From the UHGV virus genome UHGV-0134280: a stretch of 39,537 nt of DNA. The stretch is one strand, 5' to 3'. The translations under genes were made by a program, and so were the position numbers. Position 1 is the first letter of the stretch, and every line of letters starts with the position of its first letter. The stretch comes from a virus. Shown piece by piece: positions 10,175-29,367 of the stretch. The notes beneath the pieces were generated by a model. It was not told the origin of the DNA. It saw only the letters and a list, made by a program, of their open reading frames with translations, and did not search any database.

Positions 10175-10186
10175 GTGACATGTCAC
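10175..10186. repeat. 12-bp perfect palindrome GTGACATGTCAC (copy 1)
   Basis: Read directly; 8 bp downstream of the small minus-strand ORF, at the end of the virion operon. Confidence 0.7.
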
Positions 10187-10193
10187 GCTCACG

Positions 10194-10334
10194 TTATGAC
10201 AAGCCTATGTACCCTGCTACACCAGATAATATCAAAATAACTGCAACAGCAAATTCGCCATCGTCAATGATACATTTACGGTTCATAACGCCAAGTGCAA
10301 CAAGCGCAAACACAACAAGAATAAAAGCAATCAT
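10194..10334 (-). CDS. 46-aa two-helix hydrophobic peptide, translationally coupled to the last internal virion gene
   Basis: ATG 9 nt after the upstream stop with AAGGATGAG RBS; translation MIAFILVVFALVALGVMNRKCIIDDGEFAVAVILILSGVAGYIGLS; not in the ORF track. Confidence 0.4.
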   Translation of the reverse strand: MIAFILVVFALVALGVMNRKCIIDDGEFAVAVILILSGVAGYIGLS

Positions 10335-10343
10335 TTCTCATCC

Positions 10344-12818
10344 TTATTGCGGAGTGACATCCTGTGGTCGCCACCAGTATGTCTGGTTAAACTCTTTCTT
10401 CGAACGTTGCTCCATTTTACGCAAATAACCTGGTGAAAAATACTCCTGCATCTGGTTAAAGATCATGTGATCGAGAGCCGCCTTCAAGTACCAGAGATTC
10501 GCACCTGGCATCAGACCTTTCCCCAGCTTAACCAGATCACCACCAGTCTGCTCACTCTTCCCTTCCACAGCATTTAACGGTATGCCCTGAGCAATCTTCA
10601 CTACGTCATCAACCAGACCAGCTACCGGGCCAAGCATCGACGCCAGCGCGCCGCTTCCGTACCTAGTGTGATCTGACAATAAAAAGTCACCGTAAAGGCC
10701 AAGACCACCACCTTTCAGTAGAGCACCAAGCCAAAATTTAGCAGCATCTTCTCCTGTCATCTCGCGAGGATTACGACCAGACGCAAGGTCGTTAAGTTGC
10801 TGCGACAAAGCGCCAAGAATGGTCGTACTGGCAATAAACGTCGCAATATATGCCGCACGCCCACCAGCAGACGGCATACCCATAGCGCGTGACCAGTGAC
10901 GCATAACCACCGAGATAGGGAACGATTTAAACAGGAAAACACTTCTCGTTAATTCACCTTTCCATGTTCCACGCTGAATACCAGAACCGGTTATCAGTTG
11001 CTCACGTGCTCCCGGTGTAATAACAGCCATATCAACTTCTTCAGTTATGGCACCGAGCAGTTTACGCATTGCCTCAAATTTCACGCGTTCAGGCTCACCA
11101 AGATGTTTAACTGCTGAATCAGGGATACGCATAATGCTTTCCGGTGTCAGCATCGTATTATTGCCGTTCCCCCAGTCCTCCTGTTGCGCCAGCTTCCATA
11201 CGCTCCAGTCTGTGTCAGTAATCCCTTTGCTTTTCAGGATGCGAAAATCAGAATCATCGAGGCTACGAAGGTCTGGTGTCCGTGACACTACTTCTCCCAA
11301 GCTTCCCATCATGGTTACGCCATAGGCGCGCTTGTGCGCATCTGACCATGCTGTAAGCCCACTGGCACGCATTACCGCCGTTGCAGCCCAACGAGACACA
11401 GACGGCCCCATATTATCCATCGCCCAGCGGTTAACGCTGCCAAGTAGAGATTCCATCGCCAGACCAGCGCGGCGCGCCCGCGCAAGTTCTGTACGGTTCG
11501 TTGGGTCCATAGCTTCAAGCTGGTTGCGGAATAACTGGTTCATTGGAAGGTTGGTCACCTTCGCAGACAGATACATGGTTCCAAGATCAGAGAACGATGA
11601 CAGCAACGCGGATCCGAGTCTGCTGGCAACCAGCCAGTTGCGGATATTGTCAGACCATCGCGCGATGTGCGGATTCGCTACAGGCTGTGTCTTTCCGGAA
11701 ATAAAGTTGTACAGATTCTCTGTGTTGTTCGCCAGCCGCTCGACTTTACCGGTTTTACTCGGGTTAGCTGTTGCCGTTTCTGCCTTCACCTGATCAAGAA
11801 GAGAGCGGAAAACATGATCGGGGTTTGGGCCATATGTTTCCACCAGTGCAATATCTTTACTGATACCTTCCAGGTGACCGACCATGATTTCCCATAGAGA
11901 GCGATCGCCATAAAGTTGCTGATATTGCAGATAGGAATCTGCATCTTTGAAATGTATCTGTCGTGATGTATTACCACGGTTAGCACGTGCGCCTGAAATT
12001 CGCATTCCGGTATCAGTAAGCTTATTCAGCCCACCAGTAGCGATCGTGTTATAAGCCTCTCCAAGAAATGCAGACAACTCGGAATCGTTCATCAGTTGTC
12101 CATCGGCTCGGATATAATATTTGCGATCCAGCTTACCTATAACATCGCTAACCCACTTATCCTTTGATACCGCCCCAACCTTTTCCATAGAATGATGTTG
12201 AGGGATTCCCCAGTTTTCGAGATAGCCAATGTCCCCACCAGCATCATTAAACCGGCGGCGCAGTAGATCTGTCACTTCTCTCCACGCCTTAGCACCTTTT
12301 CTTGCTTTAGCATTGCCAGTATTTTGCCCTCGCATTTCATATACCAGGTCACGCACGCCAGCTTCATCTTCAAACAGGCCAAAAAAGCGAGGATCAACTG
12401 CTTCAAATGCCTCTTGCAATTGACTCAATGCATAATCACGAGTGGCTTTTGTTCTGGACTCAACAGAGAGGAAATTCGATTTACCGTCTGCATTAAAAGC
12501 AATAGTACGGTTAAGAGCGCCAAGTTTCCCATCAGCCCCTTGATAGCTATTGATAAATTTATCCAATCTCTGACGTGCGGATATAGTGAGGGCCACACGA
12601 CGTTTCTTTAATGCCGCTTCTCGCTGTAATTCTTCAGATGCCAATTGTGCTGCACGATATAGCCGCTCTGATTCGGAAAGTTGTCTCCACGACATCGGGT
12701 CATCACGAGCAATGGAGCGCATATTTCGATAAATGCGGTCTTCAATGTTCTGTATTTCTCGCGCCGTTAACGTGCGCTGCGCCGCCTGCTGGACCGCTTG
12801 TATACATTCCTGTCTCAT
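10344..12818 (-). CDS. Internal virion/ejection protein (T7 gp16-like, C-terminal part)
   Basis: 824 aa; called by size and position in the gp13-gp16-like block upstream of the tailspike. Confidence 0.5.
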   Translation of the reverse strand: MRQECIQAVQQAAQRTLTAREIQNIEDRIYRNMRSIARDDPMSWRQLSESERLYRAAQLASEELQREAALKKRRVALTISARQRLDKFINSYQGADGKLGALNRTIAFNADGKSNFLSVESRTKATRDYALSQLQEAFEAVDPRFFGLFEDEAGVRDLVYEMRGQNTGNAKARKGAKAWREVTDLLRRRFNDAGGDIGYLENWGIPQHHSMEKVGAVSKDKWVSDVIGKLDRKYYIRADGQLMNDSELSAFLGEAYNTIATGGLNKLTDTGMRISGARANRGNTSRQIHFKDADSYLQYQQLYGDRSLWEIMVGHLEGISKDIALVETYGPNPDHVFRSLLDQVKAETATANPSKTGKVERLANNTENLYNFISGKTQPVANPHIARWSDNIRNWLVASRLGSALLSSFSDLGTMYLSAKVTNLPMNQLFRNQLEAMDPTNRTELARARRAGLAMESLLGSVNRWAMDNMGPSVSRWAATAVMRASGLTAWSDAHKRAYGVTMMGSLGEVVSRTPDLRSLDDSDFRILKSKGITDTDWSVWKLAQQEDWGNGNNTMLTPESIMRIPDSAVKHLGEPERVKFEAMRKLLGAITEEVDMAVITPGAREQLITGSGIQRGTWKGELTRSVFLFKSFPISVVMRHWSRAMGMPSAGGRAAYIATFIASTTILGALSQQLNDLASGRNPREMTGEDAAKFWLGALLKGGGLGLYGDFLLSDHTRYGSGALASMLGPVAGLVDDVVKIAQGIPLNAVEGKSEQTGGDLVKLGKGLMPGANLWYLKAALDHMIFNQMQEYFSPGYLRKMEQRSKKEFNQTYWWRPQDVTPQ

Positions 12819-12823
12819 TTAAT

Positions 12824-14626
12824 TTAACCTCTCAAGAAACACGCCACAGCGACATCAAACAGGCTGGAATCCTGTATTGCCTGCTCACTTTCCCTGTTCG
12901 CTTCATCCAGTACTTCACGCGCGCTGCGCGATTGTGGATTACCATCATCATCCAGCACGGTGATTATCATGTCAGGTGATTCAAGCAGCGAGTCTTCAGC
13001 TATGCGCAGATCAATATCTCCTGCCTGATCCGCCATCATTTTTTGTTCTGCCTGTTGCAATATTTTATCAGGCTCAAAAGGAGCTACTTCGTCTGGCGTC
13101 CTGACCTCTGCTGTTTTATAGAATGAAACAGCCTGAGCATTAAGTTCACTTTCTACCTGCAGTCGCCGTGCCAGTTCTGCTCGAGCTTCAAAAAACTGAC
13201 CGCCAGGCTCATGCGGTGCCAACGCGTTACGAGAAAATTCCAGGCGTTCTTGTGCCTGCCTGATTCGTTGGTCAATATCGCGAAGTCTGGCCTGTTTATC
13301 TGATCGAGCACGAGATAAAGCCTTACCGCTACCGGTTGGATCTTCTGCAAGAATTTGTGCGCGCTGTTCAGTGAGATTTTCAATAATTCGTTGGCTATTA
13401 GCGATTTCAGACTGGTAAACCTGTCTATCGCCACGCGGCAAAAGCTGTGCGGCCTGTTCTTCAAGCAACCGATTTTCTATAGCGCGCGCCGTTACTCCAT
13501 CATCTACAGATGACAGAGCCTCATTAACTGCCTGAGACAGCAGACTCTTGCGCCCAGGAATTTCACTGAAAGATGCAGACTCAACAATGCTGGCAACGTC
13601 TACAGGTCTCCCCTGGCTAACATCAGACATGGCTTTTCGCAGAGCCTGAATGTGTGAATTACGCGAAAGCACGTTGATCGGCACGCCGGGAGCAATATCA
13701 ATTTCAGCATGATGAGCGGCATTCGCCGCCAGTGCAGCATCGATATCAACTGGTGAAAAATTTGGTGCGCTTGTAGACTCGCCGCGAGAGTTAATAAATC
13801 TGCCGACACCACCAAACGCCACCCCAAGAACAGCATCAATAGCAATTGCCTGTCGATCCAACACATCATACTGGTTAGCCATTTCGCTATAGCCACCATC
13901 ACGAAGCGTTTTAGCAGTAAGCCCACGCTGTGCCATACCGAACGCAATATTTGTACCTGCGGCATAGGCAATATCTGGCGTTGCACGTACTGCTGTTGCT
14001 GCGGCGCGTCGCACTGAACTTTCACCCGTCCGCGCAAGCTGAGCCGCCACACCTTCCGCCAGCGCACCACCCGCACGTAACCCGAGGCTCATAGGGATCA
14101 GTGTTCCGGCACCAGCAGTAATACCCTGCACTAATCCAGCTTCCTGCGCCGTCCTGAAATCAACACCCTGTGCTGTCAGCCGTTCAAACTCAGAAAAACC
14201 CTGTAGAGAAGTTACCGCCGCAGCACCTCCGACCGGACCACCGAGCGTTGTACCGACAACAGCCTGCCCGCCCATATCGAACAACCCATAAAGAACCTGC
14301 CCGGCGGTTCCGGTTGTCGCGGCATCAGGCGTCAGCCGCTTAACCTGCTGCTCTGCTAGTTTTCTCTGCTCGGCAATGTATGAAACTGAAGTATCATTGA
14401 GCGAGGTGTTTTCGTTAACAAACTGAGCAATCGGGGATACGATTTTATCCATCCCTGCCCATAGCAACTGATCTGGCTTTGCCACCAGCCCGGAGTACAA
14501 ACCAGACAATGCCGCTCCTACAGCATTGTCGAAAAAACCAACATCGCTGTTAAAACCAGCTGGATTTGATGCTGCTTCGTCAAGCTGCTGATTCTGGTTT
14601 ACTGGATTAAGGCCAAAGTAACTCAT
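12824..14626 (-). CDS. Internal virion protein (gp16-like, N-terminal part), Gly/Ala-rich
   Basis: 600 aa; Gly/Ala-rich hydrophobic segments and coiled coil; synteny only. Confidence 0.45.
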   Translation of the reverse strand: MSYFGLNPVNQNQQLDEAASNPAGFNSDVGFFDNAVGAALSGLYSGLVAKPDQLLWAGMDKIVSPIAQFVNENTSLNDTSVSYIAEQRKLAEQQVKRLTPDAATTGTAGQVLYGLFDMGGQAVVGTTLGGPVGGAAAVTSLQGFSEFERLTAQGVDFRTAQEAGLVQGITAGAGTLIPMSLGLRAGGALAEGVAAQLARTGESSVRRAAATAVRATPDIAYAAGTNIAFGMAQRGLTAKTLRDGGYSEMANQYDVLDRQAIAIDAVLGVAFGGVGRFINSRGESTSAPNFSPVDIDAALAANAAHHAEIDIAPGVPINVLSRNSHIQALRKAMSDVSQGRPVDVASIVESASFSEIPGRKSLLSQAVNEALSSVDDGVTARAIENRLLEEQAAQLLPRGDRQVYQSEIANSQRIIENLTEQRAQILAEDPTGSGKALSRARSDKQARLRDIDQRIRQAQERLEFSRNALAPHEPGGQFFEARAELARRLQVESELNAQAVSFYKTAEVRTPDEVAPFEPDKILQQAEQKMMADQAGDIDLRIAEDSLLESPDMIITVLDDDGNPQSRSAREVLDEANRESEQAIQDSSLFDVAVACFLRG

Positions 14627-17136
14627 TGCGGAATATCTCCGGAGAATCTCTGACGCTTCTGTGTCAGATCAAGAACAACGGGAGAACCATCATCTTTCAG
14701 CAGATAACCAGTACCAAGTTTCACCAGGTACTGACTATCGCCGTAACTTTGCAAACCATACTGACCAGGCGGTGTTTTTATCCCAGAGCCGACAACTTGT
14801 TCATTCCAAGCCTGATTAACCTGCTTATCGAATTGCTCTGCAGACATTCCCCACGGCAAAAGGACATTCCCCATTCCGTTATAGTCATGCACGCCACCTG
14901 TAGCTACGTTAACAGCCTGTTTCCAGACATCATTGTCAATTTCGCCTGATACCACGCCTTTTTTCGCCATCACACCAGCGTAATAATCCTTTGCGATCTC
15001 GTATGCCATTGATGCCCCCTGAGCGTCACCAGCAAATGCATCCTTCACCATGTCAGAAAACTCAAGGCGAAGATCAGCATCTTTAGGCATCGGAATACCT
15101 TTCGCATCATCAGTACCTTTACGAGCCGCCGCGCCAGCAAGAATTGTCTGCGCAGCGGTTTCAGGAGACACGGAAACATCCGGATTAAACCAGTTTTTTT
15201 CTGCCAAAATACCACCAGGCTTATCCATCAGTATCCCGGCAACGGCAGCAGATGGAGCGTTGGCACTGATCTGCTGTAGTGCTGACATATACACCTGCCC
15301 ACCACCAGTGCTCTGCCTGATGGTATCGAGATATGCTGCCTGTTGGGAAACTGGAGCATCACGAAAGAAAACACCGATCTGATTGGCCTCGTCTTTGGAA
15401 AAGAACGTCAGTGGAGTGCCATATGACTTAGCAAGGTCACTGACCTGAGCGGCACGCAAGGCAACGCTCTGTCCAAAGTTATCCTTATTGCTCATGTCGA
15501 TAGGCTTTGCCTGTCCGGAGGCAAGAGAGAACTGCACAGGATCCGACTGCCGCTGCTTTATCACCTGATTTGCAGCCGAAACAACGTTGTCATAAAGATC
15601 TGCGCGTGCCGCATACCCCTCCCCTGTCTCACCAGTATCCGGGCGTAATTGCTCAACATATGCTGTAATGCTGCTTGTCGGCATATTGCGGAAAGAGCCT
15701 ATATACTGTCCGGCGATCTGCGTATTTCTGAACTCGGTATATCGCAGGTTTCCTTCTCTGACGCCATAAGCTGCAATAAAATCAGCCTCACCAGGTGGGT
15801 TAGGAAATTCAACGCCACGCATATACGCAGCCGTCGCATCGCGAACCCGACTGTCAATCATCGTTTTATATTCAGCCTGCTGCTGCCGACGAAGTTGATC
15901 CGCCTGTCGCATAAAACTTGCCTGCGCCTCAGGAGATGCCGCATCGAATGCTGCATTACCGGTATAGCGTTTAGTGTTGGTTGGAATTGTTGATAAACCA
16001 AGTGCTGCACTGACACCAGCAGTTAACTGCTGATCACTGTATGGCTGGCTACCGTTCTCATGATGGATAATGGCTGCACAAAGCGCCTTCAGGGTATCAG
16101 GATTAGATGCATCGAGAGGCTCATCAGCAGAAACGCCAAGTTGTTCGCACACTGCTTTGATATACGACATAGTGTCATTTTTATCAGTAGGCGGTGCCCA
16201 GCGATTAATTATCTCGCTGACGGTATCAATACCCTGCCTCTGATACGACATCAGGTTTCGCCCTAATGCACGAATCCCGTGTTCAGGTGTTTCGAATTTA
16301 GCAAATCGACCATCATCACCGGTCTGGCCTACCCACGGATTAGTTTTGCTGTATTCGAGATTTCCTGGGTTATTGTTGCGTATGCCACGGGCACTATCGG
16401 AAGAGTCACTATCGGCTACAGCACGGCGAGCTCCAGCAGCAGTATCACTTAACTCGCCATTACTTTGGATGAATGCGGTCGCATTGTTTGCCGACCACTG
16501 GGACAATGCGGCATCAGCAACCTTCTCTTTAAACTCGATTTTCTTGGCCTGGATTTGCTCGTCGCTCCAGCCATGCGCAATGCCGTAATCCTCAATTTGC
16601 TGGAAAGTTTGCTTATTAGCCAGTACGTATGCGGCGTTGTCGCCATACAATGCTGCGGCATTTTTACCATTGTTCAGCAACGTCGCCTGAAACTGGCCTT
16701 CTTCGTAGGCTTTTATTTGCCCTATCTCGTGCCGCCCGGCCTGCGTAGTGAACTGAATACGCTGCTGCTGCGCCTGCTGCATGAAAGCATTACGAGCCTG
16801 TTCATCCGGCAGCGACATAGCCAGTTGTTCGATCTGAGCATCAAACTGCTGCGTATACTCCTGACCTTTTCCAATAGCATTTTTCCCTTTCAGGTTAAGC
16901 AAACCTGTTTCAGGGTTATTCAACAGATCGCTGCTTATCTGGCTTAAGCTAAGAGAAGCATCCTGAGCCATAGCAACATTCGCACGCTGTTTTGCCTGCG
17001 CAACAATACCTGCATATTGCTCTGCAACATCGCCAAGTACATCACCGACATTTGGTGTCTGAAACGATGAGAATCCCTGAGTCGAAATCCCTCTGCTCTG
17101 AACCTGACGGCCCGATGTTGTTGGTACAACTGGCAT
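14623..17136 (-). CDS. Internal virion protein (gp15-like)
   Basis: 837 aa; size and order; contains a conserved-looking RNNNPGNL segment of uncertain meaning. Confidence 0.45.
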   Translation of the reverse strand: MPVVPTTSGRQVQSRGISTQGFSSFQTPNVGDVLGDVAEQYAGIVAQAKQRANVAMAQDASLSLSQISSDLLNNPETGLLNLKGKNAIGKGQEYTQQFDAQIEQLAMSLPDEQARNAFMQQAQQQRIQFTTQAGRHEIGQIKAYEEGQFQATLLNNGKNAAALYGDNAAYVLANKQTFQQIEDYGIAHGWSDEQIQAKKIEFKEKVADAALSQWSANNATAFIQSNGELSDTAAGARRAVADSDSSDSARGIRNNNPGNLEYSKTNPWVGQTGDDGRFAKFETPEHGIRALGRNLMSYQRQGIDTVSEIINRWAPPTDKNDTMSYIKAVCEQLGVSADEPLDASNPDTLKALCAAIIHHENGSQPYSDQQLTAGVSAALGLSTIPTNTKRYTGNAAFDAASPEAQASFMRQADQLRRQQQAEYKTMIDSRVRDATAAYMRGVEFPNPPGEADFIAAYGVREGNLRYTEFRNTQIAGQYIGSFRNMPTSSITAYVEQLRPDTGETGEGYAARADLYDNVVSAANQVIKQRQSDPVQFSLASGQAKPIDMSNKDNFGQSVALRAAQVSDLAKSYGTPLTFFSKDEANQIGVFFRDAPVSQQAAYLDTIRQSTGGGQVYMSALQQISANAPSAAVAGILMDKPGGILAEKNWFNPDVSVSPETAAQTILAGAAARKGTDDAKGIPMPKDADLRLEFSDMVKDAFAGDAQGASMAYEIAKDYYAGVMAKKGVVSGEIDNDVWKQAVNVATGGVHDYNGMGNVLLPWGMSAEQFDKQVNQAWNEQVVGSGIKTPPGQYGLQSYGDSQYLVKLGTGYLLKDDGSPVVLDLTQKRQRFSGDIPQ

Positions 17137-18152: not shown

Positions 18153-20623
18153 CAGAATCCCCCAACAGTAAGGCGAGGAATAACGGCAAGAACAGACAGC
18201 GGCAACGGGTCAAGCTGACGGATTTTTACACGTCCGTTTTTGCCCCAGTTACTGTCCAGTTTCACTTCTACTTTTCCGGTAGCATCATCAACAGGATCAT
18301 CGTAGAACTCGAATTCACGCTGTGGATATTCGTACCATTTACCGCCGGGCGTAGTCGCCCAGATGCCGCGACTGGCATTCACAACCAGAGTAACGGACGG
18401 GATCACCTGTTTTTTGTCCAGCAGCGTTTCCTGTCCGTTAATGTTGATATCCAGTGTTTCGAATTCAGCAGTTATTGGCAGGCCGATGTGCACTACAGCC
18501 CCCGGAGATTCCAGCGTGACGGCACCTCCGGAAACCACTTTCTGTGGCTCCACGTTCGCATCAGAGAGAATGTTTACGGTCTGGCCTTCAAGATGAGACA
18601 GGCCTCCAAATGTCCGGCGCGCCATCTGCCAGTTCGTGGTGGCCACATTCCTGAGGGATGGCGGGACGTTCCTGTTAGCACGAACCACTACAGCGGTATT
18701 GCTGGTTACAGAAATAATGTCGCAACGTAATTCTTTTGACACTTCATCGCCAGTATCAGGATCAGTTCCGACATAAGGGAACTGTAGTTGCGCGCCGACA
18801 TCACTACTGGTGAAGTACGCACCACCAGAAACACTGATTGTATATTCCGCGCGATAATCCCATTCGCCAGAACCACCAGTGATGGTCATCGTTCTGTCAG
18901 ACGTATTTCTTCCATCATAGCTAAGGCCAGAATCAACAAAGAAAGCATCTTCATCGCTGGTAAATAAACGGCTGGACAGTCGCTCGATGTATCTCACTGT
19001 TTGCCCGTTAATAGTTCGGTTAACGACGAAATACACCGCATCTTCATTGCCTTCGCTGATACTGCATGTGCTTTCATATTTTCCGGTACTGGACTGTGGT
19101 GCCCATGCAAAAACCTGTTGATCACGCAGATAGGTCATCACCAGTAATTTGCCGTCATCACGAATGCAGAAGGCGCTGGAGTAAGGGACAATCGAGAAGC
19201 ACCAGTCAACAATGCTGTGCTTCTGAAAAAGATGATTGGCAAGGATGGTCAGGTCGTTCCCCTGATAGCCGTCAACATCGAATGAATAGGCCAGATCACG
19301 GACAACACTGCCTTTCTCCTGGACGAACAGAGCAATATTCGCCACAGCAATTGGTGGGACATTGCTCGAGCCATTTGATCCCTGAGAGCTGAATGCAAAT
19401 GATGATGGGGTTAACACTTTGTTCTGGTCGCCGGTGATGACGTACTCACCTCCGGAAGTCAGTGCCACCAGCGAACCGACATCAATCAGGTGGCGGATCT
19501 CATTAACCTGACGCCCGGCATAGGTGTAGATAATTCTGTCGTCATCCTGCGTAGGATTGCTTTTGCCAAAATCCTTATAATCCCCGGTACGGCTGGCCCA
19601 GATAGTCTGAGGGAACGCAGTCGATGCGGCGAAGTAAAGACGTTGTTGATAATAAACAACAGTGCCAGGATAACCATTAACACTGTTCCAGGCATATTTA
19701 GCCCATTTATAGCTGGCATTATCCTCGCCAACGACCTGCGAAGGGATATAGGAAATCACCTCGGCAGTTGCAGTAGTTCCATTTGCAGCAGTGATACGGG
19801 CAATGCCAAAACCACTGTGCAGATATTCCCACTCAATGCCAGTATCATCATCACCGGATCCGCCCCAGCCATCCCATGATGTGCCTTCTGTATGCGAAGG
19901 GCGCAAAGTGCCTGTTTTGCCTGCTGTAACGGCGCGATAGTAGTTACTGTCTGCACGGCGAATATCGCCAATCGACGTACTCTTACTGGTTTCCCATACC
20001 GGCACTGAATCCACTGCAGGCTGTTCCAGATAGAACAATTTGCCTACCTGCTCCGCGCCAAAAATAGAGGCGCTTGCCGTTAACGTAATTGTCCCAGTGC
20101 TGGCGCTGGCATAAACCGTCACTGACTCGTCAATATTGATATCTTCAAATGGCCCGTTCTTCGTTACCACATCAACCAGTTGCCAGTTGTCATGCGCATA
20201 GCGGCGCAACTCTTTCGGCGGGTATGCCGGGTGAACCAGCGTAAGCACGTCGGCGCTTTGCGTAAATTTAATTCGGAACAGATCGGCTTCAGTATATGGC
20301 GTGGCAATTTCATAAATAACATTGCTGCTGTTCAGCACCAACGCACCATCTTTGATAACGCGCATGTACTGGTGCCCGAACTCCAGAGCATAGGTCTGAA
20401 CCGTCGAGAACTGGAACGGGATCAGGCGGCATTTCCGATTTGGGTATTTGGCGGCACCGACAAAACGCGTACCAGGTCGATTCTCAACGCCGCCATACTG
20501 CCGCACGATAAAGTTATCGCACTTGCGCAATGCCACCTGGTACTTCGCCATGTCGATACGACCGTACAACGACGGTCCAATCTCACCACCGGCAAAGCTG
20601 GGCTGGATCCAACTGATAGCCAT
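18152..20623 (-). CDS. Tail tubular protein B / nozzle (gp12-like)
   Basis: 823 aa directly after the gp11-like gene; weak N-terminal resemblance to T7 gp12. Confidence 0.5.
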   Translation of the reverse strand: MAISWIQPSFAGGEIGPSLYGRIDMAKYQVALRKCDNFIVRQYGGVENRPGTRFVGAAKYPNRKCRLIPFQFSTVQTYALEFGHQYMRVIKDGALVLNSSNVIYEIATPYTEADLFRIKFTQSADVLTLVHPAYPPKELRRYAHDNWQLVDVVTKNGPFEDINIDESVTVYASASTGTITLTASASIFGAEQVGKLFYLEQPAVDSVPVWETSKSTSIGDIRRADSNYYRAVTAGKTGTLRPSHTEGTSWDGWGGSGDDDTGIEWEYLHSGFGIARITAANGTTATAEVISYIPSQVVGEDNASYKWAKYAWNSVNGYPGTVVYYQQRLYFAASTAFPQTIWASRTGDYKDFGKSNPTQDDDRIIYTYAGRQVNEIRHLIDVGSLVALTSGGEYVITGDQNKVLTPSSFAFSSQGSNGSSNVPPIAVANIALFVQEKGSVVRDLAYSFDVDGYQGNDLTILANHLFQKHSIVDWCFSIVPYSSAFCIRDDGKLLVMTYLRDQQVFAWAPQSSTGKYESTCSISEGNEDAVYFVVNRTINGQTVRYIERLSSRLFTSDEDAFFVDSGLSYDGRNTSDRTMTITGGSGEWDYRAEYTISVSGGAYFTSSDVGAQLQFPYVGTDPDTGDEVSKELRCDIISVTSNTAVVVRANRNVPPSLRNVATTNWQMARRTFGGLSHLEGQTVNILSDANVEPQKVVSGGAVTLESPGAVVHIGLPITAEFETLDININGQETLLDKKQVIPSVTLVVNASRGIWATTPGGKWYEYPQREFEFYDDPVDDATGKVEVKLDSNWGKNGRVKIRQLDPLPLSVLAVIPRLTVGGF

Positions 20624-23822: not shown

Positions 23823-24115
23823 TCCTGTTCACTGGCCTCTTTGGCCATCTTCAAATACTGTTCAGGGCAATGCGCCATAACGCGCTGAAACAGTTCCAGC
23901 GCCAGATTGCGTTGCCCCTCATTAAATGCCATTGCCATAGCGTCCATCGGTGAGATAGCGGAAAACACACGGCCTTTCTCCAGCACCGACCAGACAACTC
24001 GACGCCCCTGTTCACTGCTCATGACAAAGCGAATGTCATCAATTTCACGCTGTGCCATGTCACGTTGCTTACGGGCGTTTTCTTCTTTCAGTTGATCGTC
24101 TTCGTAATCTGTCAT
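23819..24115 (-). CDS. Small acidic protein between portal and scaffold
   Basis: 98 aa, overlapping stop/start with both neighbours. Confidence 0.35.
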   Translation of the reverse strand: MTDYEDDQLKEENARKQRDMAQREIDDIRFVMSSEQGRRVVWSVLEKGRVFSAISPMDAMAMAFNEGQRNLALELFQRVMAHCPEQYLKMAKEASEQE

Positions 24116-25791
24116 TGTGATTGCCCACCCTGACCACTAACTGCATTCGCCATAGCTGACAAAACACTCGGATCCGAAGTTTTAGCTTCGCTTAGCGTCT
24201 TGACACCCTGTGCCGCCGCCATCCCCATCGCCATCATTTGTTGCTGCTGTTGTTGCTGTGCCCGTTGCTGGCGAGCCTGCTCAACCTGTTCCTGAGGAAC
24301 AATGACGGTTGGAGACACTCCGGACATATCAGCGAATGCATCGATCGCCTGATCAACGTTGAGTTTGTCGAGAGCTTCTGGTTTCGCTTGCGCAAGTTGA
24401 CCAATGAAGTTGACCGTGGACGCCAGACTGGACAGGCCGATAGACTTCTGCGCCTGAGCCATGACGGAAATGTATTCGACCTTCAGGGGCATACCTTCCA
24501 TCACGTCTGGCGGTGGCGGCAGCATGTTTTTACGAACCATCATCGAGAAAGCGCGGTCAATGAGAGGATTAAGACATTCGTCGTTCAGACGCTCCAGAAC
24601 CGGCCCCAACATCAGAAGTTTTTCTTCTTTCATTTCGATCACCGCTTCAACAGGCATCGAGCGGGTATTGATGTTCTGCAACATCATGAACAGATCGACA
24701 AAGTAGGCGCTGTTAATGATTTGGCGGGTGTCCTGAATGTCTGCTACCAGATCTGCTGTACTGGGGTTAACCAGATAAGCAGGCCTGAAACCATCCTGAC
24801 CAGTAATCTGATCGATATACGTGATGTCGCCAGGAAGAAGGGAGGCGCGCTGATTCTTGAGGGAAGTCGGAGCAACCATCGGCGGATTGGTGGCTTTATC
24901 AATCAACTGCGACTTGCGCTTCTGGAGAAGCTGCAATGCCTTAACAGGTCCAAGCGCCAGCATACCAGGGCATGATGATCCATAAACATCTTCGCCGTTA
25001 ACTTCCCAGCGCGGAGCCATAATTGGAAACTCATCGAATCCGGACTCACGCAACAACTTGTCGTTATCGCCACCAACCTCGTAATAAACCGATTTGAATG
25101 GCTTGTTCTTGCTATCCAGCTTCGATGTATCGCGGTCAATGTTCGGGTAAACCGAATGCATCACTTCAATCCACTTCTCGTAGGTGCCGCTTTCCCACAT
25201 GCTTTTTACGGATTCGCTGACGTTATTTAGCCCGAACTCCTGAACAAGCTGACGAACAGTCATAGAGAACTTGCGAAAACAGGTGTCCACACTGCCACGA
25301 GGTGAGTTAGCCAGGTAGTAACTGCCTATCGGGAATGGCATTGTGCGAATGATGTCCTCGTCATCCTCCAGCACCGCCATTGCACCAGTGCTGTATGTGC
25401 CTAGGCTTCCGTATAACTGCGGAAGAGACTGATAGAGATTCGACTTATTGAACATATCGTTCATGCGGTTCTGCACCGCCTCAAGCCACAACTTAACAGG
25501 GCCATAATCCATCATTTCAGGATCTGGCGTAGCCAGGCGAAACCACGGACGCGCGGGGCTTGTGATGCCTGACATCATGCCGCTGGCGAGAGTGCGCGCC
25601 GCCATTGTCCCGGTCGAATCAATAATGCGTGTATTGCGTCGATCGTTACGGTTGACCTCAGAAGTCAGAAAGCGGGAACCACGCGGGTTGATGTAATCAC
25701 TCAACTCGCGCCAGTGCGGCTCGAACGACTGACGCTCGCTTTCAAGTTGTGCGAACTGTTTGTTCAATCGCTCTTTAGTTGTTTCCGCCAT
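24112..25791 (-). CDS. Portal protein (T7 gp8-like)
   Basis: 559 aa; Gln/Ala/Met-rich C-terminal tail like T7 gp8; GGAG RBS; follows the terminase genes. Confidence 0.75.
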   Translation of the reverse strand: MAETTKERLNKQFAQLESERQSFEPHWRELSDYINPRGSRFLTSEVNRNDRRNTRIIDSTGTMAARTLASGMMSGITSPARPWFRLATPDPEMMDYGPVKLWLEAVQNRMNDMFNKSNLYQSLPQLYGSLGTYSTGAMAVLEDDEDIIRTMPFPIGSYYLANSPRGSVDTCFRKFSMTVRQLVQEFGLNNVSESVKSMWESGTYEKWIEVMHSVYPNIDRDTSKLDSKNKPFKSVYYEVGGDNDKLLRESGFDEFPIMAPRWEVNGEDVYGSSCPGMLALGPVKALQLLQKRKSQLIDKATNPPMVAPTSLKNQRASLLPGDITYIDQITGQDGFRPAYLVNPSTADLVADIQDTRQIINSAYFVDLFMMLQNINTRSMPVEAVIEMKEEKLLMLGPVLERLNDECLNPLIDRAFSMMVRKNMLPPPPDVMEGMPLKVEYISVMAQAQKSIGLSSLASTVNFIGQLAQAKPEALDKLNVDQAIDAFADMSGVSPTVIVPQEQVEQARQQRAQQQQQQQMMAMGMAAAQGVKTLSEAKTSDPSVLSAMANAVSGQGGQSQ

Positions 25792-25805
25792 TTCAATGAC
25801 TCCGG

Positions 25806-26012
25806 TTACTGACCAAGCAGCGTTTTACCGCTGGTATTAGCAGTTGATGTGTCGCCCTGAGAACCGGTAAGCAGCGTAGAACTACGACCAGCAGCAGCGC
25901 GACGGCGACGAGTTTCTTCGTCGCGGGCATCAACAACGGCGGCATCCTGCTCCTGTGGTGCTGCCTGAACTTCTGGTGTTGCAGGCACTGATGGTGAGCT
26001 ACCCATGCACAT
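25806..26012 (-). CDS. Small Ala/Pro/Arg-rich protein upstream of portal
   Basis: 68 aa, GGAG RBS 8 nt upstream; function unknown. Confidence 0.35.
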   Translation of the reverse strand: MCMGSSPSVPATPEVQAAPQEQDAAVVDARDEETRRRRAAAGRSSTLLTGSQGDTSTANTSGKTLLGQ

Positions 26013-26101
26013 ATCAATGACTCCGTACGCAATTAAATTATTACCAATTTAACCACATATGATTTATTTATCGTAGACGGTTGACATTTAACGCGTGAAT
26101 T

Positions 26102-26118
26102 ATTACCTTTCAGGTAAC
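26102..26118. promoter_or_regulatory. 17-bp palindrome ATTACC-TTTCA-GGTAAc (site E)
   Basis: Read directly; about 16 bp after a TTGACA hexamer at 26081-26086; upstream of the tRNA island. Confidence 0.5.
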
Positions 26119-26439
26119 CAAAGAGTTCATTCCGGTTACTAACCTGACTGGCTTGTCGTTAAATTGAACAGGTGGAGTGAGCTTTTATTTTGAGCAGTAC
26201 GGCGTATGGCACATGCGCCGATAGCGGTCTGGATACGTTTAAGGGGCACCCTCCCTTGCTCGGGCAAACGAACCAGGTAGCCGGAATGTGCAAGTCGAGC
26301 GGTTTTATTCCGCGCACGGGGATTCACCATCCAGGCGATTCGGTGTGACACCTCGGAAGAGACGAGGGTACAACGATGAGAGCATTTATGGAGCCGCGAC
26401 AAAGTGTGGCGCCTTAACAGGCTAAGTGCTCTCAGCGTT

Positions 26440-26516
26440 GTGGCATTAGCTCAGCTGGACAGAGCAACCGCCTTCTAAGCGGTTGGTCGCAGGTTCGAAT
26501 CCTGCATGCCACGCCA
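26440..26516 (+). tRNA. tRNA-Arg (anticodon UCU)
   Basis: Cloverleaf folded by hand: 7-bp acceptor stem GTGGCAT/ATGCCAC, D-arm, anticodon loop CTTCTAA, T-loop TTCGAAT, discriminator G and encoded CCA. Confidence 0.85.
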
Positions 26517-26714
26517 GAATCACACCTAAGGACCGTGATGCCAGAAGTTCCAGGGGCTTGGCGGTGATGGTTTCCCTTGAAGGACTATCACCGCCCTTTT
26601 TACAGCAGGACGCCATTGCGATGACTTCATGCTGTAAACCCGTACAGCCACGGAAGGCAGAACCCATTGCTTCCAGTTCGCCCGGTTCGCCGGGCATTTT
26701 TTTAAGGTGAGATT

Positions 26715-27086
26715 ATGAACGACCAGCAAATCGAAAAAGAAATCGTTGAGAAAGGCAAAACTGCTCCGCGCGTTACGCCAGACCATATCGAAAGCATTAT
26801 TGCTCAGGAGGCATATTTCACAGCAGAGGATGGTGCCTTTGGCAAAGCCATAAAAGAGAAACATACTGGCGGAGAGGTAAACTACCAGCCGCACGAATCA
26901 CTTTCTCTGCTGACGTTCTGCGTCCTGGTGCTGCGCAACGGCTTCACCGTCACCGGAGTGAGCGCCTGTGCAAGCCCGGAAAACTTTGATGCAGAAATTG
27001 GTCGGAAGATTGCCCGGCAGAATGCTGTAAACAAAATCTGGATGCTTGAAGGTTACTTGCTGAAGCAGAAGTTAAGCGAGCAATAA
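26715..27086 (+). CDS. Small phage protein, possibly N4 gp49 / Sf6 gp66 family
   Basis: 123 aa with AAGGTGAG RBS on the strand opposite the structural genes; family assignment from memory only. Confidence 0.4.
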   Translation: MNDQQIEKEIVEKGKTAPRVTPDHIESIIAQEAYFTAEDGAFGKAIKEKHTGGEVNYQPHESLSLLTFCVLVLRNGFTVTGVSACASPENFDAEIGRKIARQNAVNKIWMLEGYLLKQKLSEQ

Positions 27087-27090
27087 CACC

Positions 27091-27102
27091 GTGACATGTC
27101 AC
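27091..27102. repeat. 12-bp perfect palindrome GTGACATGTCAC (copy 2)
   Basis: Read directly; 5 bp after the stop of 26715..27086 and next to the terminator hairpin downstream of the large terminase gene. Confidence 0.7.
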
Positions 27103-27104
27103 AA

Positions 27105-27134
27105 ACAGCCAGCCTACGAGCTGGCTTTGTTTTA
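27105..27134. terminator. Terminator hairpin agccagc/gctggct with T-tract
   Basis: 7-bp stem, 6-nt loop, TTGTTTT downstream on plus and an A-run on the other side; between convergent genes. Confidence 0.5.
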
Positions 27135-27176
27135 TCCTCACCAGAGGATATCAACGACATTATCCCCACCAGCGGA

Positions 27177-28652
27177 TTAAGCATAGGGATCGTAATCTGT
27201 AATGGCCTTGCCTTGCTGGTTCTGCTGACCTGGAATTCGCAGACGCTTCGACACAGGGAAAGCAAACGTCAGCAATAGCGCATCGCCTTTACCAGGAGAA
27301 CGCCCAAGCCGCTCCTTGATATCTTCCTTCGGTTCGATAACGATTTTACCGTCCACTCGAACTTTGTACTCTGCCGCCGACAGGTCGTCCGCTGTTTCCT
27401 GGTCATCAAGCATGCCGCCCAGCCTCAGCCATGTCTTGCATGAGTTGAACATCTCCCCGCGCTTATTGAGCATCTGCGGGTCAGTAGACGCGCCACCGAA
27501 CGGAACAAGTTGCCATGTACGACCCCAGCCGTCACCGATTGACTTCAGACCAGTTCCGTAACCGAAGTCGATGAACACTGCGTCAGCCTGGTACTGGTCT
27601 TCAAAGTCAGCGATACGCTTCGCCATAATCAGATCGTCAGTAGTCTTGTTGCCAGTCCACAGCACCTTACTGTGCAGCCCCTGCCGCAGGTATATCACCG
27701 CGTCATCAACGCCTGAGTATGCCGGGTCAACGCCGATTATCACCGGAGCATGTGCAACCTGCGCAGCGGTTACCACCCGTTTCATTGCCTCATCAGTAAG
27801 ACCGGTAGGGATAAACTGCAATTCAGATGCATCAGGGAATATGCCGCGCACACGGATTTTAACGAAGTCGCTGTCTTCCCCGTAGTCATCAACCCATTTC
27901 TGCAACTGCTGTTTGTTAGTGCCTTCCACCGTCCGGCTGTCAATCTGCGCAGTTTTCCAGCGGTGTTTATATTTGCGGAAACATTCGCGGAAACGCCCGG
28001 TGTTACGTGTAGGGTTTCCGAACGCCACCCAGATAATCTCAGTGTCTTCGTCCGTAAGCGCACCCTCGGCAACTTCCCACACCAGATCGGCAATGTTGGA
28101 TGCTTCGTCGAATACCACGATGATGCGTTTGCGCTCGTTGTGTAGTCCGGCGAATGCCTCAGTGTTGTGCTCAGACCAGGGGATTGCGTCAGCTCGCCAC
28201 CGCTTGTCGTGCCCAGGATCATTGCTGTACATCGCGGTAGCGGTACAGGTAAACCAGTCTTTCGTGATAGCAAGGTTCGACCACTTGATAATTTCCGGCC
28301 AGGTCTTCGTTCGTAGCTGGTTGTCGGTGTTGGCGGTCACCACGACCTTACAATCCTCGCAAGTGGACATGCCCCAGTTGATCAGCATTGAGATGAATGC
28401 GGATTTACCAATACCGTGACCAGAAGCGCGTGCCAGCATAAGCGGCTGATAACGCGTCTCTGGATTCTGCAGGTGATCACGTATCTCTCGGAACGCATCG
28501 GCCTGCCACTGACGTGGACCGGTAGCATGTGCCAGTTCAGTCCCCTCTTCCCCCCAAGGGAACGCATAGAGGGCATAGCCAAGCGGATCGTGAGTGAACC
28601 CTGCAATATCCTCGATCAACTGCTCTTCAGGAGATAACGCTGTATCTGTCAC
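27177..28652 (-). CDS. Terminase large subunit
   Basis: 491 aa; Walker A-like GHGIGKS near the N-terminus; overlapping stop/start with the small subunit gene. Confidence 0.85.
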   Translation of the reverse strand: MTDTALSPEEQLIEDIAGFTHDPLGYALYAFPWGEEGTELAHATGPRQWQADAFREIRDHLQNPETRYQPLMLARASGHGIGKSAFISMLINWGMSTCEDCKVVVTANTDNQLRTKTWPEIIKWSNLAITKDWFTCTATAMYSNDPGHDKRWRADAIPWSEHNTEAFAGLHNERKRIIVVFDEASNIADLVWEVAEGALTDEDTEIIWVAFGNPTRNTGRFRECFRKYKHRWKTAQIDSRTVEGTNKQQLQKWVDDYGEDSDFVKIRVRGIFPDASELQFIPTGLTDEAMKRVVTAAQVAHAPVIIGVDPAYSGVDDAVIYLRQGLHSKVLWTGNKTTDDLIMAKRIADFEDQYQADAVFIDFGYGTGLKSIGDGWGRTWQLVPFGGASTDPQMLNKRGEMFNSCKTWLRLGGMLDDQETADDLSAAEYKVRVDGKIVIEPKEDIKERLGRSPGKGDALLLTFAFPVSKRLRIPGQQNQQGKAITDYDPYA

Positions 28653-29245
28653 TGATTACCATCCTGACGTTCTTTGAGTCGCTTCCTGGCTGCTGCTATG
28701 CGATCAGCAATTGTCACATTCACATTAACATCCAGACGTTCTTTGAACGCGTTGACATCAACATGCTTACCAATCAGCTCAAGGTTCTTCACCTTGTCAG
28801 GCCATTTAATTTTTTTGAGGATTGTCTCTATCGAATCCTCGTTCATGTTCATGATGGTCGATGACAGATCAAAGCCACTAAGCGTAGTGCGCCAGATTTT
28901 CGGCCACTCACGGATTGGTTTAAGGCTCCCATCGTCGTTGAGGATATCGATCACGTCCATCTGGTCGATCTCCACCAGGCGCATGAGAACGTAATCAGCA
29001 CTGACGCGCATTCGTTTGTTGCGCTCCTCCATCAACTCGGCAATCCGTTTTTGAATGCGTTCATCGCGCATCATGACACTGGCTTTAACTGCCGCTGTAT
29101 TTGGGGAGAATCCTGCGTTAATCGCAGCCTGAGTCTGGTTTTCAGGCGTTTTGATGTATGACTGGCAATAAGCCTCCTGCATTGCTGTGAGCGGCTTAAA
29201 TTGCGTTGATTTGCGTTTATAGGTTTTAGGTTCAGCAGGCATCAT
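28649..29245 (-). CDS. Terminase small subunit
   Basis: HTH-like segment QAAINAGFSPNTAA; start trimmed to ATGATG with GGTGG RBS because the track extension to 29323 runs through a terminator hairpin. Confidence 0.65.
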   Translation of the reverse strand: MMPAEPKTYKRKSTQFKPLTAMQEAYCQSYIKTPENQTQAAINAGFSPNTAAVKASVMMRDERIQKRIAELMEERNKRMRVSADYVLMRLVEIDQMDVIDILNDDGSLKPIREWPKIWRTTLSGFDLSSTIMNMNEDSIETILKKIKWPDKVKNLELIGKHVDVNAFKERLDVNVNVTIADRIAAARKRLKERQDGNQ

Positions 29246-29261
29246 AACCACCCTGGTAATT

Positions 29262-29278
29262 GTTACCGTTGTGGTAAT
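29262..29278. promoter_or_regulatory. 17-bp palindrome gTTACC-GTTGT-GGTAAT (site J) with an extra GGTAAT half-site at 29255-29260
   Basis: Read directly; between the terminator at 29286-29314 and the small terminase RBS. Confidence 0.5.
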
Positions 29279-29285
29279 AGTACCA

Positions 29286-29314
29286 TGCAAAATAAAGCCG
29301 CCATAGTTGGCGGC
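29286..29314 (-). terminator. Rho-independent terminator gccgcca/tggcggc upstream of the terminase genes
   Basis: 7-bp GC stem with 4-nt loop; on the minus-strand transcript it is followed by UUUAUUUUG. Confidence 0.55.
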
Positions 29315-29355
29315 AGTATTCAAAACCCATCAAATTCATCATGCATAATCTACTC

Positions 29356-29367
29356 GTGACATGTCAC
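29356..29367. repeat. 12-bp perfect palindrome GTGACATGTCAC (copy 3)
   Basis: Read directly; overlaps the stop codon of 29364..29705, about 40 bp upstream of the terminator before the small terminase gene. Confidence 0.7.

Follow-up and report, generated by a model that had tools for sequence, protein, structure and literature searches.

The genome of the phage studied here (UHGV-0134280; the window, meaning the whole stretch of DNA analysed, is 39,537 nucleotides long) carries a perfect 12-bp palindrome, GTGACATGTCAC, at three places, which raises the question of what recognizes this sequence and what it does there. A search for exact matches recovered the three identical copies of the original prediction (copies A, B and C; Table 1), and not one of 100 dinucleotide-preserving shuffles of the genome held even a single copy (none expected). 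A sequence with one mismatch, GTGCCATGTCAC, occurs once (24052-24063), within a coding region, and is otherwise present only in phiV10. As argued below from sequence comparisons, the palindromes are most likely docking sites, or operators, of a small uncharacterised DNA-binding protein encoded beside copy C.

Table 1. Positions of the palindromes and neighbouring features in the window, with equivalent palindrome positions in related phages.
Feature	Position	Strand	Description
Terminator-like hairpin at A	10159..10172	-	GCCGCTTTCGCGGC plus CTTGTTTTTA T-run; 2 nt past copy A in the late direction
Palindrome copy A	10175..10186	.	GTGACATGTCAC; 3' end of the long minus-strand virion operon, converging plus-strand antirepressor island opposite; equivalents epsilon15 19517, Tyrion 20377, SPN1S 19662, phiV10 19493
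PF13876 gene	26715-27086	+	Converges on terL
Palindrome copy B	27091..27102	.	Between the converging terL (minus) and PF13876 gene (plus); equivalents epsilon15 2142, Tyrion 2702, SPN1S 2174, phiV10 2262
Terminator-like hairpin at B	27107..27126	+	AGCCAGCCTACGAGCTGGCT plus TTTGTTTTATC T-run; 4 nt from copy B; possibly bidirectional
Terminator hairpin at C	29297..29314	-	GCCGCCAACTATGGCGGC plus TTTATTTTG; 41 nt past copy C
Palindrome copy C	29356..29367	.	TGA of the gp49-like gene inside; end of the early-right operon, terminator and terS downstream; equivalents epsilon15 39612, SPN1S 38653; at record junctions in Tyrion and phiV10
gp49/N15-gp46-family gene	29364..29702	-	112 aa; basic helix, ribbon-helix-helix, zinc ribbon; proposed palindrome binder

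Palindromes and terminators in the late region

All three copies lie near stop codons, as had been claimed, but the stop nearest to copy B is not that of terL, which is 75 nt away; it belongs to the plus-strand PF13876 gene (27084-27086), 4 nt from the palindrome. The last small gene of the virion operon ends in a TAA (10196-10194, minus strand) 7 nt before copy A, while the TGA of the gp49-like gene (29366-29364, minus strand) sits inside copy C. Neither copy A nor copy B has a downstream gene on either strand.

The proximity of each copy to a terminator hairpin was also confirmed, at the distances given in Table 1. The hairpin at copy A coincides with an annotated terminator of phiV10 (19505-19522), and the hairpin at copy B, located between the palindrome and the terL stop codon, is annotated in phiV10 as a terminator for the late direction. 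The hairpin at copy C divides the early-right operon from the repressor-controlled promoter region of terS and is kept in epsilon15, Tyrion and SPN1S as well as in prophages of several genera. Three successive leftward transcription units end at the sites: the early-right operon, terS-terL, and the unit running from the portal gene to the last virion gene. The prophage-repressor-type operator ATTACC-N5-GGTAAT has 14 matches in the phage, all away from the palindromes, and the late region is laid out with repressor operators at unit starts and a palindrome plus terminator at unit ends. The Rep operators of epsilon15 and SPC32H are, like the GTGACATGTCAC sites, palindromic, present in multiple copies in the same genome and found in the late region, but they differ in sequence and in standing at unit starts; the epsilon15 record annotates the Rep sites and not the palindromes. 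The palindrome was accordingly rejected as an operator of the prophage repressor, whose motif is different and located elsewhere.

Conservation in related phages

The original prediction described the phage as T7-like; it is instead phiV10/epsilon15-like (Uetakevirus). The proposed check for positional conservation at equivalent boundaries gave a clear answer in this group, as the exact 12-mer is found at three equivalent places in epsilon15, SPN1S and Tyrion, with differing flanks and in relatives that are only about 77% identical. In phiV10, the third copy has one mismatch. The 12-mer is likewise unchanged at the same three positions in prophages of approximately ten genera, being invariant in 4 distinct flank contexts for copy A, 11 for copy B and 16 for copy C. 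We also considered a fourth site where the lysis cassette ends, and rejected it: it is near-perfect in SPN1S but degenerate in epsilon15 and decayed in this phage.

Linkage between the palindrome and the gp49-like gene

To describe the site beyond this phage group, we use the form GTGAC-N2-GTCAC. The 866 kb of DNA surrounding 47 homologues of the gp49-like gene (from different species, with 39-85% identity) contain 66 such sites where about 0.8 would be expected, and at least one site is present at 43 of the 47 loci, counts that are not independent events because many of the loci are related. The site lies no more than 12 nt from the homologue's stop codon in 29 of the 47 cases, and in 23 of these the TGA is inside the site. 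The remaining four of the 47 lack any site within 10 kb, and none is present in the locus of a Mu-like member. Other spacers gave almost no matches in the same DNA (one each for N0 and N3; zero for N1, N4, N5 and N6), and the inverted order of the arms gave none. The site occurs at or near the stop codon in nearly all homologues, with one to three further copies elsewhere in the genome.

This pattern recurs in phages with unrelated virion genes. For example, there are three sites in ZF40, three in Vibrio K303, three each in N15 and phiKO2 at the same places, and four copies of a variant 12-mer in an Aeromonas phage, while a P2-like Yersinia phage has one site at the stop codon and the lambda-like Chlobot has one adjoining a gene remnant. 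Sites with the N2 spacer are still found near members with only 30-36% identity, some of them in tandem, 23 bp apart, and one lineage has three GTGAC-N1-GTCAC sites in their place. Even where the proteins share only 30-40% identity, the arms are invariant and do not covary. Judging from these comparisons, the sites travel with a gp49-like gene, and the pair is common to many unrelated temperate phages. The original prediction contained neither the association of the site with the gene that ends inside copy C nor its sharing by unrelated phages, and our literature search returned no paper with the 12-mer and none on the gp49-like family.

The contexts of the sites are more varied outside this phage group. 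According to a tally from annotation tables, annotated genomes have roughly three quarters of their sites between genes or over a stop codon, although most of their sequence is coding. N15 and phiKO2 also have sites within repA and ahead of the antirepressor promoter, and ZF40 has them within cII-like and other genes. A Shine-Dalgarno sequence and start codon follow within 10-19 nt of the site in N15, phiKO2, K303, the Aeromonas phage and Chlobot, and the site precedes terS by 28-31 bp in K303 and the P0254 lineage. In view of this heterogeneity, one single mechanism may not hold everywhere. Across relatives, 34 of 88 sites (39%) are within 60 nt of a terminator-like hairpin, compared with 7% of random positions and 11% of ORF ends, yet terminators are not near the sites of ZF40, N15, phiKO2 or Vibrio K303. 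Terminator adjacency is thus a feature of the Uetakevirus-type context only, and we rejected coupling to terminators as a general function.

The gp49-like protein

The product of the gene resembles gp49 of epsilon15 and gp46 of N15. A confident structure model predicts an N-terminal basic helix, a ribbon-helix-helix domain and a C-terminal zinc ribbon, which ends in a short helix with no coiled coil. The modelled order of beta-strand, helix and helix, with dimer pairing, is that of the ribbon-helix-helix (CopG/Arc/MetJ) superfamily, a DNA-binding fold, and the model has a fold-level match to PDB 3vea. Searches with the single protein against Pfam (including the curated ribbon-helix-helix families), NCBIfam, PADLOC models and PDB sequences gave no family match; only 2 of 54 family members touched RHH_5 or RepB-RCR_reg, with E values of 0.01-0.03 that fall below the cut-off. 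At 50% identity the family forms at least 150 clusters, and its members go under no other names than 'hypothetical' or 'transcriptional regulator', the latter label coming solely from PHROG or RefSeq naming. Its carriers include podo-, myo- and siphoviruses, P2-like phages and phage-plasmids of Enterobacterales, Vibrio and Aeromonas, to which nearly all named hosts belong. The basic-helix motif ERKxxQRxR is nearly invariant, whereas the beta-strand and the central dinucleotide of the site vary between subfamilies. Cysteines C79, C82 and C99 are invariant or nearly so, with a fourth cysteine in mid-loop in most members.

The C-terminal half is weakly similar to the RNA-polymerase-binding zinc finger of TraR/YbiI (hmmsearch E 0.035 and 0.054; hhalign probability 48% over 58 columns), a likeness that would favour a role in late transcription. 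As in TraR/DksA-type proteins, which are the top PDB sequence matches of the family profile, a long helix is followed by CxxC-G-x2-[IL]-P and a later cysteine. However, the statistics are weak and there is no PF01258 match. The C4 finger of DksA/TraR has the pattern CxxC-x17-CxxC after its long helix, with an acidic tip in the members that bind RNA polymerase, whereas the gp49-like family places the fourth zinc ligand elsewhere and lacks the acidic (DxxDxA) tip. Insertion into the polymerase channel is also doubtful because the helix would double as helix B of the predicted ribbon-helix-helix domain.

Proposed operator and boundary role

We consider it reasonably probable that the 12-mer is the cognate operator of the gp49-like protein and that the bound protein acts as a boundary or roadblock at the ends of transcription units. 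We infer that a dimer would occupy each GTGAC-N2-GTCAC site, with the basic helix reading the invariant arms and the variable beta-ribbon lying over the variable central dinucleotide. As the stop codon is inside the site, the gene and one site would form a mobile unit, transferred among many kinds of temperate phage, with about three sites per carrier genome. The position of the sites at 3' ends beside terminators, together with repressor operators at the starts of late units, suggests that the palindromes probably act as symmetric boundary or roadblock elements in this phage. The bound protein may reinforce termination at the three unit ends, keep early transcription and the converging prophage-expressed islands out of neighbouring late units, and exert feedback on its own operon.

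Well-known relatives of this fold offer a partial parallel. P22 Arc and Mnt, CopG, ParD, the TacA antitoxins and AmrZ are, like the gp49-like protein as modelled, small beta-alpha-alpha dimers acting on short inverted repeats, and tandem operators are found with Arc/Mnt/CopG-type repressors as they are in some gp49-like lineages. The operators of those repressors overlap the promoter of the regulated operon, often their own, whereas a gp49-like gene has its linked site at its 3' end, the remaining sites being at operon ends. The predicted N-terminal basic helix and C-terminal zinc ribbon are additional to that type, and the gp49-like family, unlike known ribbon-helix-helix repressors, matches no Pfam ribbon-helix-helix model above threshold. 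An operator at the 3' end of its regulator's own gene is unusual, and the co-occurrence of site and gene is not the same as contact between them.

Alternative explanations

The original prediction favoured a DNA site for a dimeric protein over an RNA hairpin, and the present data support this. If a protein bound the transcribed palindrome, or the transcript were processed there, so as to control how the following gene is translated or how stable the 3' end is, this would agree with the closely following start codons in the five phages listed above and with the location of the sites in this phage at mRNA 3' ends, just before terminator hairpins. However, the stem amounts to only -1.2 kcal/mol, no better than shuffles (z about 0), the arms never covary, there is no Rfam match at the sites, copies A and B have no gene beyond them to control, and the modelled fold belongs to a DNA-binding family, making an RNA-level element highly improbable. 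A cos or pac packaging site, or a recombination site at module boundaries as the original prediction had suggested, is the least probable of all the readings. Copy C lies just upstream of terS, the GenBank records of phiV10 and Tyrion start inside the palindrome, and K303 and two other lineages have a site with a cos-like region on one side and terS on the other; sites also lie on either side of the terminase and virion modules, next to variable islands. Against packaging, three identical copies would mean cutting or initiation at three places, TerL is of the headful type according to notes in the epsilon15 record, the phiV10 record was merely opened after the stop codon of the last gene, the cos of N15 is at the start of its record, far from the three sites, and the ZF40 sites are far from terminase. 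Nothing was found in support of recombination, for which 12 bp is too short if exchange is homologous, and no recombinase is linked to the sites. The late-gene regulator or antitermination factor that had also been envisaged fares better. A protein in the 'Q position' could load RNA polymerase at the palindromes or activate promoters, so that terminators are passed on the way to the terS-terL, virion and lysis genes. As with lambda Q and qut, the last early gene (here the gp49-like gene, before terS) is followed by a short interval, a terminator and late genes, and in K303, the Aeromonas phage and the P0216 lineage the gene stands shortly before genes for lysis or terminase. Copy C has the look of a promoter (GTGACA, 18 nt, CATGAT; 9/12) with a terminator after it, as in lambda PR'-tR', copies C and A are both upstream of terminators in the late direction, other lineages have sites 28-56 bp before terS or before lysis cassettes, and in the P0212 lineage an extended -10 element is preceded by tandem sites at about -44 and -67. 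On the other hand, the promoter-like match is not conserved in epsilon15 or Tyrion, several prophages have a LexA-box promoter after copy C in place of the terminator, copy B is past its hairpin in the late direction, and separate Q-like genes are also carried by ZF40, N15, phiKO2 and Chlobot. The gp49-like protein has no Q family domain (Pfam, PHROG, NCBIfam) and a cysteine pattern unlike TraR, and its putative sites differ from qut in being palindromic, repeated at operon ends and variable in geometry. Fixed promoter geometry was sought and rejected: the interval from copy C to the repressor-controlled terS promoter is 47 or 65 nt, with the terminator between, and 131 distinct flanks show no preferred distance from site to -10 element. 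With no fixed geometry, the protein is unlikely to be a late activator of the classical kind or an antiterminator of the Q type. We disfavour the activator, Q-like, packaging, RNA-hairpin and prophage-repressor readings.

A more tentative possibility, and one we hold at low probability, is that temperate phages and phage-plasmids carry a miniature MatP/matS-like system, in which the protein, bound at about three dispersed sites and not controlling particular promoters, would organise, bridge or position the DNA of the phage or plasmid-prophage, or would interfere with the host Ter, MukBEF or divisome machinery; the zinc ribbon might also contact RNA polymerase like TraR. Enterobacterales, Vibrio and Aeromonas, which supply nearly all named carrier hosts, are the bacteria with MatP and MukBEF, and many carriers are ParA-bearing phage-plasmids. 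The half-sites are identical to the matS arms (GTGAC-N3-GTCAC in E. coli), so that the same arms occur with N1 in one phage lineage, N2 in the gp49-like family and N3 in the host. MatP, too, is a ribbon-helix-helix protein with a preceding basic helix (KQTIRARRK, compared with RKAAQRARQ in the phage protein), the 3vea fold match adds to the likeness, and the phage sites are few and dispersed, depend little on context and mostly lie where converging genes leave a poorly transcribed gap. However, sequence comparison showed no homology to MatP (hhalign probability 0.4%, BLAST E 1.3), its Pfam domains PF06303 and PF17414 were found in neither the phage protein nor family members, and a zinc ribbon replaces its four-helix bundle and C-terminal coiled coil. 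The matS consensus is GTGAC[AG]N[TC]GTCAC, of 13 bp (PMC3603311), whereas the phage site has a 2-bp spacer and a total of 12 bp, and the phage system would be orthogonal to host matS because its spacer is one bp shorter. The phage system differs, too, in that its gene is carried by the phage and has its stop codon overlapped by one site. With so many motifs known, a half-site match of 5 bp may be due to chance, it is not obvious why integrating phages would need positioning, and the tandem sites 23 bp apart resemble ordinary cooperative operators. No phage MatP-like or matS-like system was described in the literature searched. The resemblance to matS also allows the palindrome to be bound by a host protein, such as MatP or another common factor, or by a different phage protein, the linkage to gp49 being incidental; the palindrome also resembles further host palindromes whose arms are GTGA...TCAC (the SlmA site, CRP half-sites). 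We find this very unlikely, given that the site accompanies the gene from one unrelated phage to another, in most cases no more than 12 nt from the stop codon, that only the N2 spacer is enriched, the matS spacing having one match in the 866 kb and one (in K303) among 11 phages, and that the prophage repressor has its own distinct and well-separated operator. Prophages, moreover, are reported to avoid matS (PMC3603311).

Implications

Interpreted as the operator of the gp49-like protein, the palindrome assigns a concrete and testable predicted DNA target to a widespread protein family, which occurs in epsilon15/phiV10-type phages, in N15-type and Vibrio phage-plasmids, and in P2-like and ZF40-like phages. 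The epsilon15/phiV10-type phages are in use for the detection and typing of Salmonella and E. coli O157, and a regular layout is now revealed in their late region, with repressor operators first and palindrome plus terminator last. If the match to matS exceeds chance, a host chromosome-organising system would have a phage counterpart, the first that we have found, and the N1, N2 and N3 sites would provide a natural spacing series in which to study the half-site distance of ribbon-helix-helix proteins.

Copies of the palindrome and their conservation

Between positions 9000 and 30500 the window shares 97-98% identity with phiV10, phiv142-3 and the E. coli O157 typing phages 9 and 10; for Enterobacter phage Tyrion and Salmonella phage epsilon15 the figure over this region is ~77-82%. 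On the basis of these identities the phage is assigned to the phiV10/epsilon15-like temperate podoviruses (Uetakevirus), replacing the T7-like label of the original prediction. Its late genes are encoded on the minus strand.

The 12-mer GTGACATGTCAC is present in three exact copies (A, B and C), and shuffled window sequence contained zero copies in every shuffle. The reported distances from the copies to stop codons and terminators were reproduced, except that the stop adjoining copy B, which had been attributed to the large terminase gene (terL), is that of a converging plus-strand PF13876 gene. Copy C encloses the TGA of a 112-aa open reading frame (ORF), a homologue of epsilon15 gp49 and N15 gp46. 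A one-mismatch copy is present in phiV10 and absent from epsilon15, SPN1S and Tyrion; since it is intragenic and common only to phiV10, it is probably due to chance.

Coordinates of palindrome copies, genes and repressor operators (window coordinates unless another genome is named)
Feature	Position	Strand	Remark
Palindrome copy A	10175-10186
Palindrome copy B	27091-27102
Palindrome copy C	29356-29367
One-mismatch copy	24052-24063		GTGCCATGTCAC; within small gene after portal gene
12-mer, epsilon15	2142, 19517, 39612		exact
12-mer, SPN1S	2174, 19662, 38653		exact
12-mer, Tyrion	2702, 20377, record junction		exact
12-mer, phiV10	2262, 19493, record junction		first two exact; junction with one mismatch
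gp49-like gene	29364-29702	minus	112 aa
terS	28649-29323	minus	Terminase_2
terL	27177-28652	minus
824-aa gene	10344-12818	minus	near end of portal-to-virion operon
Small membrane-protein gene	about 10334-10194	minus	last of portal-to-virion operon
tRNA gene	26440-26513	plus	Rfam 71.7 bits; variable island between terL and portal gene; strand opposite to late genes
isrK-like sRNA	8437-8513	plus
C4 antisense RNA	8532-8619	plus
Bro-N antirepressor ORF	8623-9360		after isrK-like sRNA and C4
ATTACC-N5-GGTAAT	29244, 29262		before terS
ATTACC-N5-GGTAAT	26102		before portal operon
ATTACC-N5-GGTAAT	7172		before tailspike
ATTACC-N5-GGTAAT	8292, 8385		among matches at antirepressor module
ATTACC-N5-GGTAAT	9433, 32553, 32615, 34561, 34946, 35658, 35720		further matches

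The expectation that the 12-mer would recur at equivalent boundaries of related phages was borne out, with the three equivalent places kept in epsilon15, SPN1S and Tyrion. In anchored comparisons the 12 bases are unvarying in 16, 11 and 4 distinct contexts at the three positions, and the flanks differ. The finding is judged genuine: it is conserved and not random. A possible fourth site closes the lysis cassette; near-perfect in SPN1S, it is degenerate in epsilon15 and has decayed in the window. It overlaps the stop codon of the Rz-like gene, reading GTGACATGTCAT in SPN1S and GTGACATGGCAT in epsilon15; the window has ATAGCATGGCAT (minus strand, about 1836-1850), which looks like this site in decay.

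Linkage of the site to a gp49-like gene

The 112-aa ORF matches PHROG 536 ("transcriptional regulator"), and no family for its product was found in Pfam, NCBIfam or PADLOC. Searches with tblastn recovered homologues in 152 phage records spanning very different phage types: Uetakeviruses, Pectobacterium myovirus ZF40 (66%), Vibrio K303-type phages, Aeromonas phages, P2-like Yersinia phages (42%), N15 and phiKO2-type linear plasmid prophages (35-37%), and, as a remnant only, the lambda-like E. coli phage Chlobot. In every phage examined, GTGAC-N2-GTCAC occurs at, just after or near the homologue's stop codon, and most examined carrier genomes have about three copies, against a shuffle expectation of about 0.02-0.06 per genome. 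For example, ZF40, K303 and N15 (GTGACTGGTCAC) each have three sites, those of N15 being found in the same places in phiKO2; an Aeromonas phage has four copies of GTGACCGGACAC, while the Yersinia phage (GTGACGCGTCAC, enclosing the TGA) and Chlobot have one each.

A wider pattern search, using one genome per species, covered 47 loci (866 kb) whose homologues are 39-85% identical and found 66 sites where about 0.8 were expected, with at least one site in 43 loci; these counts of loci and sites take in related sequences. The site lies within 12 nt of the homologue's stop codon in 29 of the 47 loci, and in 23 of those 29 the stop is inside it. The same arms in the same DNA with spacers N0, N1, N3, N4, N5 and N6 occurred 1, 0, 1, 0, 0 and 0 times, and the reversed arm order did not occur. 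The family comprises at least 150 clusters at 50% identity, its members being named "hypothetical" in the sources. A representative search showed N2 sites in loci of distant members (30-36% identity), at some of which tandem sites lie 23 bp apart. No site was found at the locus of a Mu-like member, and no N2 site in one distant lineage, which instead has three copies of CGTGAC-N1-GTCACG, a natural spacer variant. This lineage is P0239, a phage-plasmid with IncFII RepA and ParA (loci L145/L146, positions 13221, 15770 and 16055); one of its copies is 56 bp before terS.

Predicted fold and resemblance to known systems

AlphaFold2, run on a 54-sequence alignment, gave a model (pLDDT 92) with a basic helix (residues 5-19) followed by an extended segment, two helices (residues 30-42 and 52-75), a zinc ribbon and a short final helix. 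Across the aligned family the basic-helix motif E-R-K-x-x-Q-R-x-R is almost unvarying, the zinc-ribbon cysteines 79, 82 and 99 are unvarying or nearly so, and a mid-loop cysteine is also present in most members. Subfamilies differ in the strand expected to enter the groove and in the central dinucleotide of the site (AT, TG, GC, AC or CG), and the correlation between the two is imperfect. We infer that the basic helix reads the unvarying arms, with the ribbon over the centre.

The arms are the same as those of matS, the site bound by E. coli MatP (GTGAC[AG]N[TC]GTCAC; PMC3603311), and the phage spacer is one base pair shorter. Prophages have been reported to avoid matS (PMC3603311). The ribbon-helix-helix of MatP is likewise preceded by a basic helix (KQTIRARRK), but the other MatP domains are missing from the phage protein, and no sequence homology was detected by hhalign (0.4%) or BLAST (E 1.3). 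For these reasons we treat the resemblance, intriguing but unproven, as an analogy and not as demonstrated membership. Besides its three N2 sites, Vibrio K303 has a single site that matches the host-type matS consensus perfectly (GTGACACCGTCAC, L089 19491). TraR/YbiI zinc fingers weakly match the C-terminal half of the phage protein, which lacks the acidic tip and Pfam signature of that family; this resemblance is a lead only.

Boundary layout and repressor operators

The prophage-repressor operator ATTACC-N5-GGTAAT, known from the epsilon15 annotation (epsilon15/SPC32H), has 14 matches in the window where 1 is expected, some of them in the immunity region. Because operators immediately precede terS, the portal operon and the tailspike gene, the late promoters appear to be under direct control of the prophage repressor. 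The layout is thus regular: each late unit carries repressor operators at its start and a terminator with a palindrome at its end, and the early-right operon ends at copy C and a terminator. Copies A and B fall precisely at the junctions between late units and converging plus-strand islands: at copy B a tRNA and the PF13876 gene, and at copy A an isrK/C4 RNA/Bro-N module (8437-9360), which is a P1/N15-type RNA-controlled antirepressor module and converges on the palindrome. The isrK/C4 pair recurs in N15. Among the collected sites, 39% have a terminator-like hairpin within 60 nt, compared with 7% of random positions and 11% of ORF ends.

In other phage groups the sites stand in different contexts. 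N15 and phiKO2 have sites inside repA and about 66 bp ahead of the start of the isrK/C4 transcript, ZF40 has sites inside genes, several phages have a site directly before a ribosome-binding site, and in K303-type phages it lies between a cos-like region and terS. Three lineages with Terminase_4 small subunits (L089 35942, L147 14095, L145 16055) have the site 28-56 bp upstream of the start of terS, where it closely follows a conserved stretch, G-rich and then AT-rich, that resembles a cos region. In Citrobacter, Pseudocitrobacter, Erwinia and Kluyvera prophages (L091, L092, L097 and L098) a LexA-box promoter follows the palindrome just past the gp49 homologue, its -35 element 6-7 bp after the site in three of the four; in L091 the promoter drives an inserted ORF of 85 aa, possibly for an SOS-controlled antirepressor, that precedes terS. 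N15 also has four copies of GCGACC-N2-GGTCGC (L088 33482, 35933, 41127 and 45564), which correspond to what the phiKO2 annotation calls "putative plasmid partitioning sites" and make up a dispersed palindrome family separate from the GTGAC sites.

Alternative roles and interpretation

A classical activator or Q-like loading site is disfavoured: the interval from copy C to the terS promoter is 47 versus 65 nt and contains a terminator, several prophages have in place of this terminator the LexA-box promoter together with one more small gene, 131 distinct flanks show no favoured distance from site to -10 element, and several carriers have a separate Q. A role in packaging might be suggested by the GenBank record of Tyrion, which opens exactly at the palindrome centre. 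The phiV10 record, however, opens after the palindrome's fourth base, where the stop codon of its last gene ends, an annotation convention; this, the three copies per genome and the location of the N15 cos elsewhere disfavour packaging. An element acting as RNA is similarly disfavoured by a marginal hairpin and by arms that never covary, and binding by a host factor sits poorly with a site that tracks the gene and with enrichment of the N2 spacing only.

The best explanation is instead that the palindromes are the operator set of an uncharacterised family of ribbon-helix-helix plus zinc-ribbon regulators, which are predicted to bind them; in the literature searched, nothing published on either the motif or the protein family was found. 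Given the late-unit layout and the enrichment of terminator hairpins, a symmetric boundary or roadblock role is the most economical reading in this phage, and since contexts differ outside its group, the downstream effect of binding may be context-dependent or architectural.
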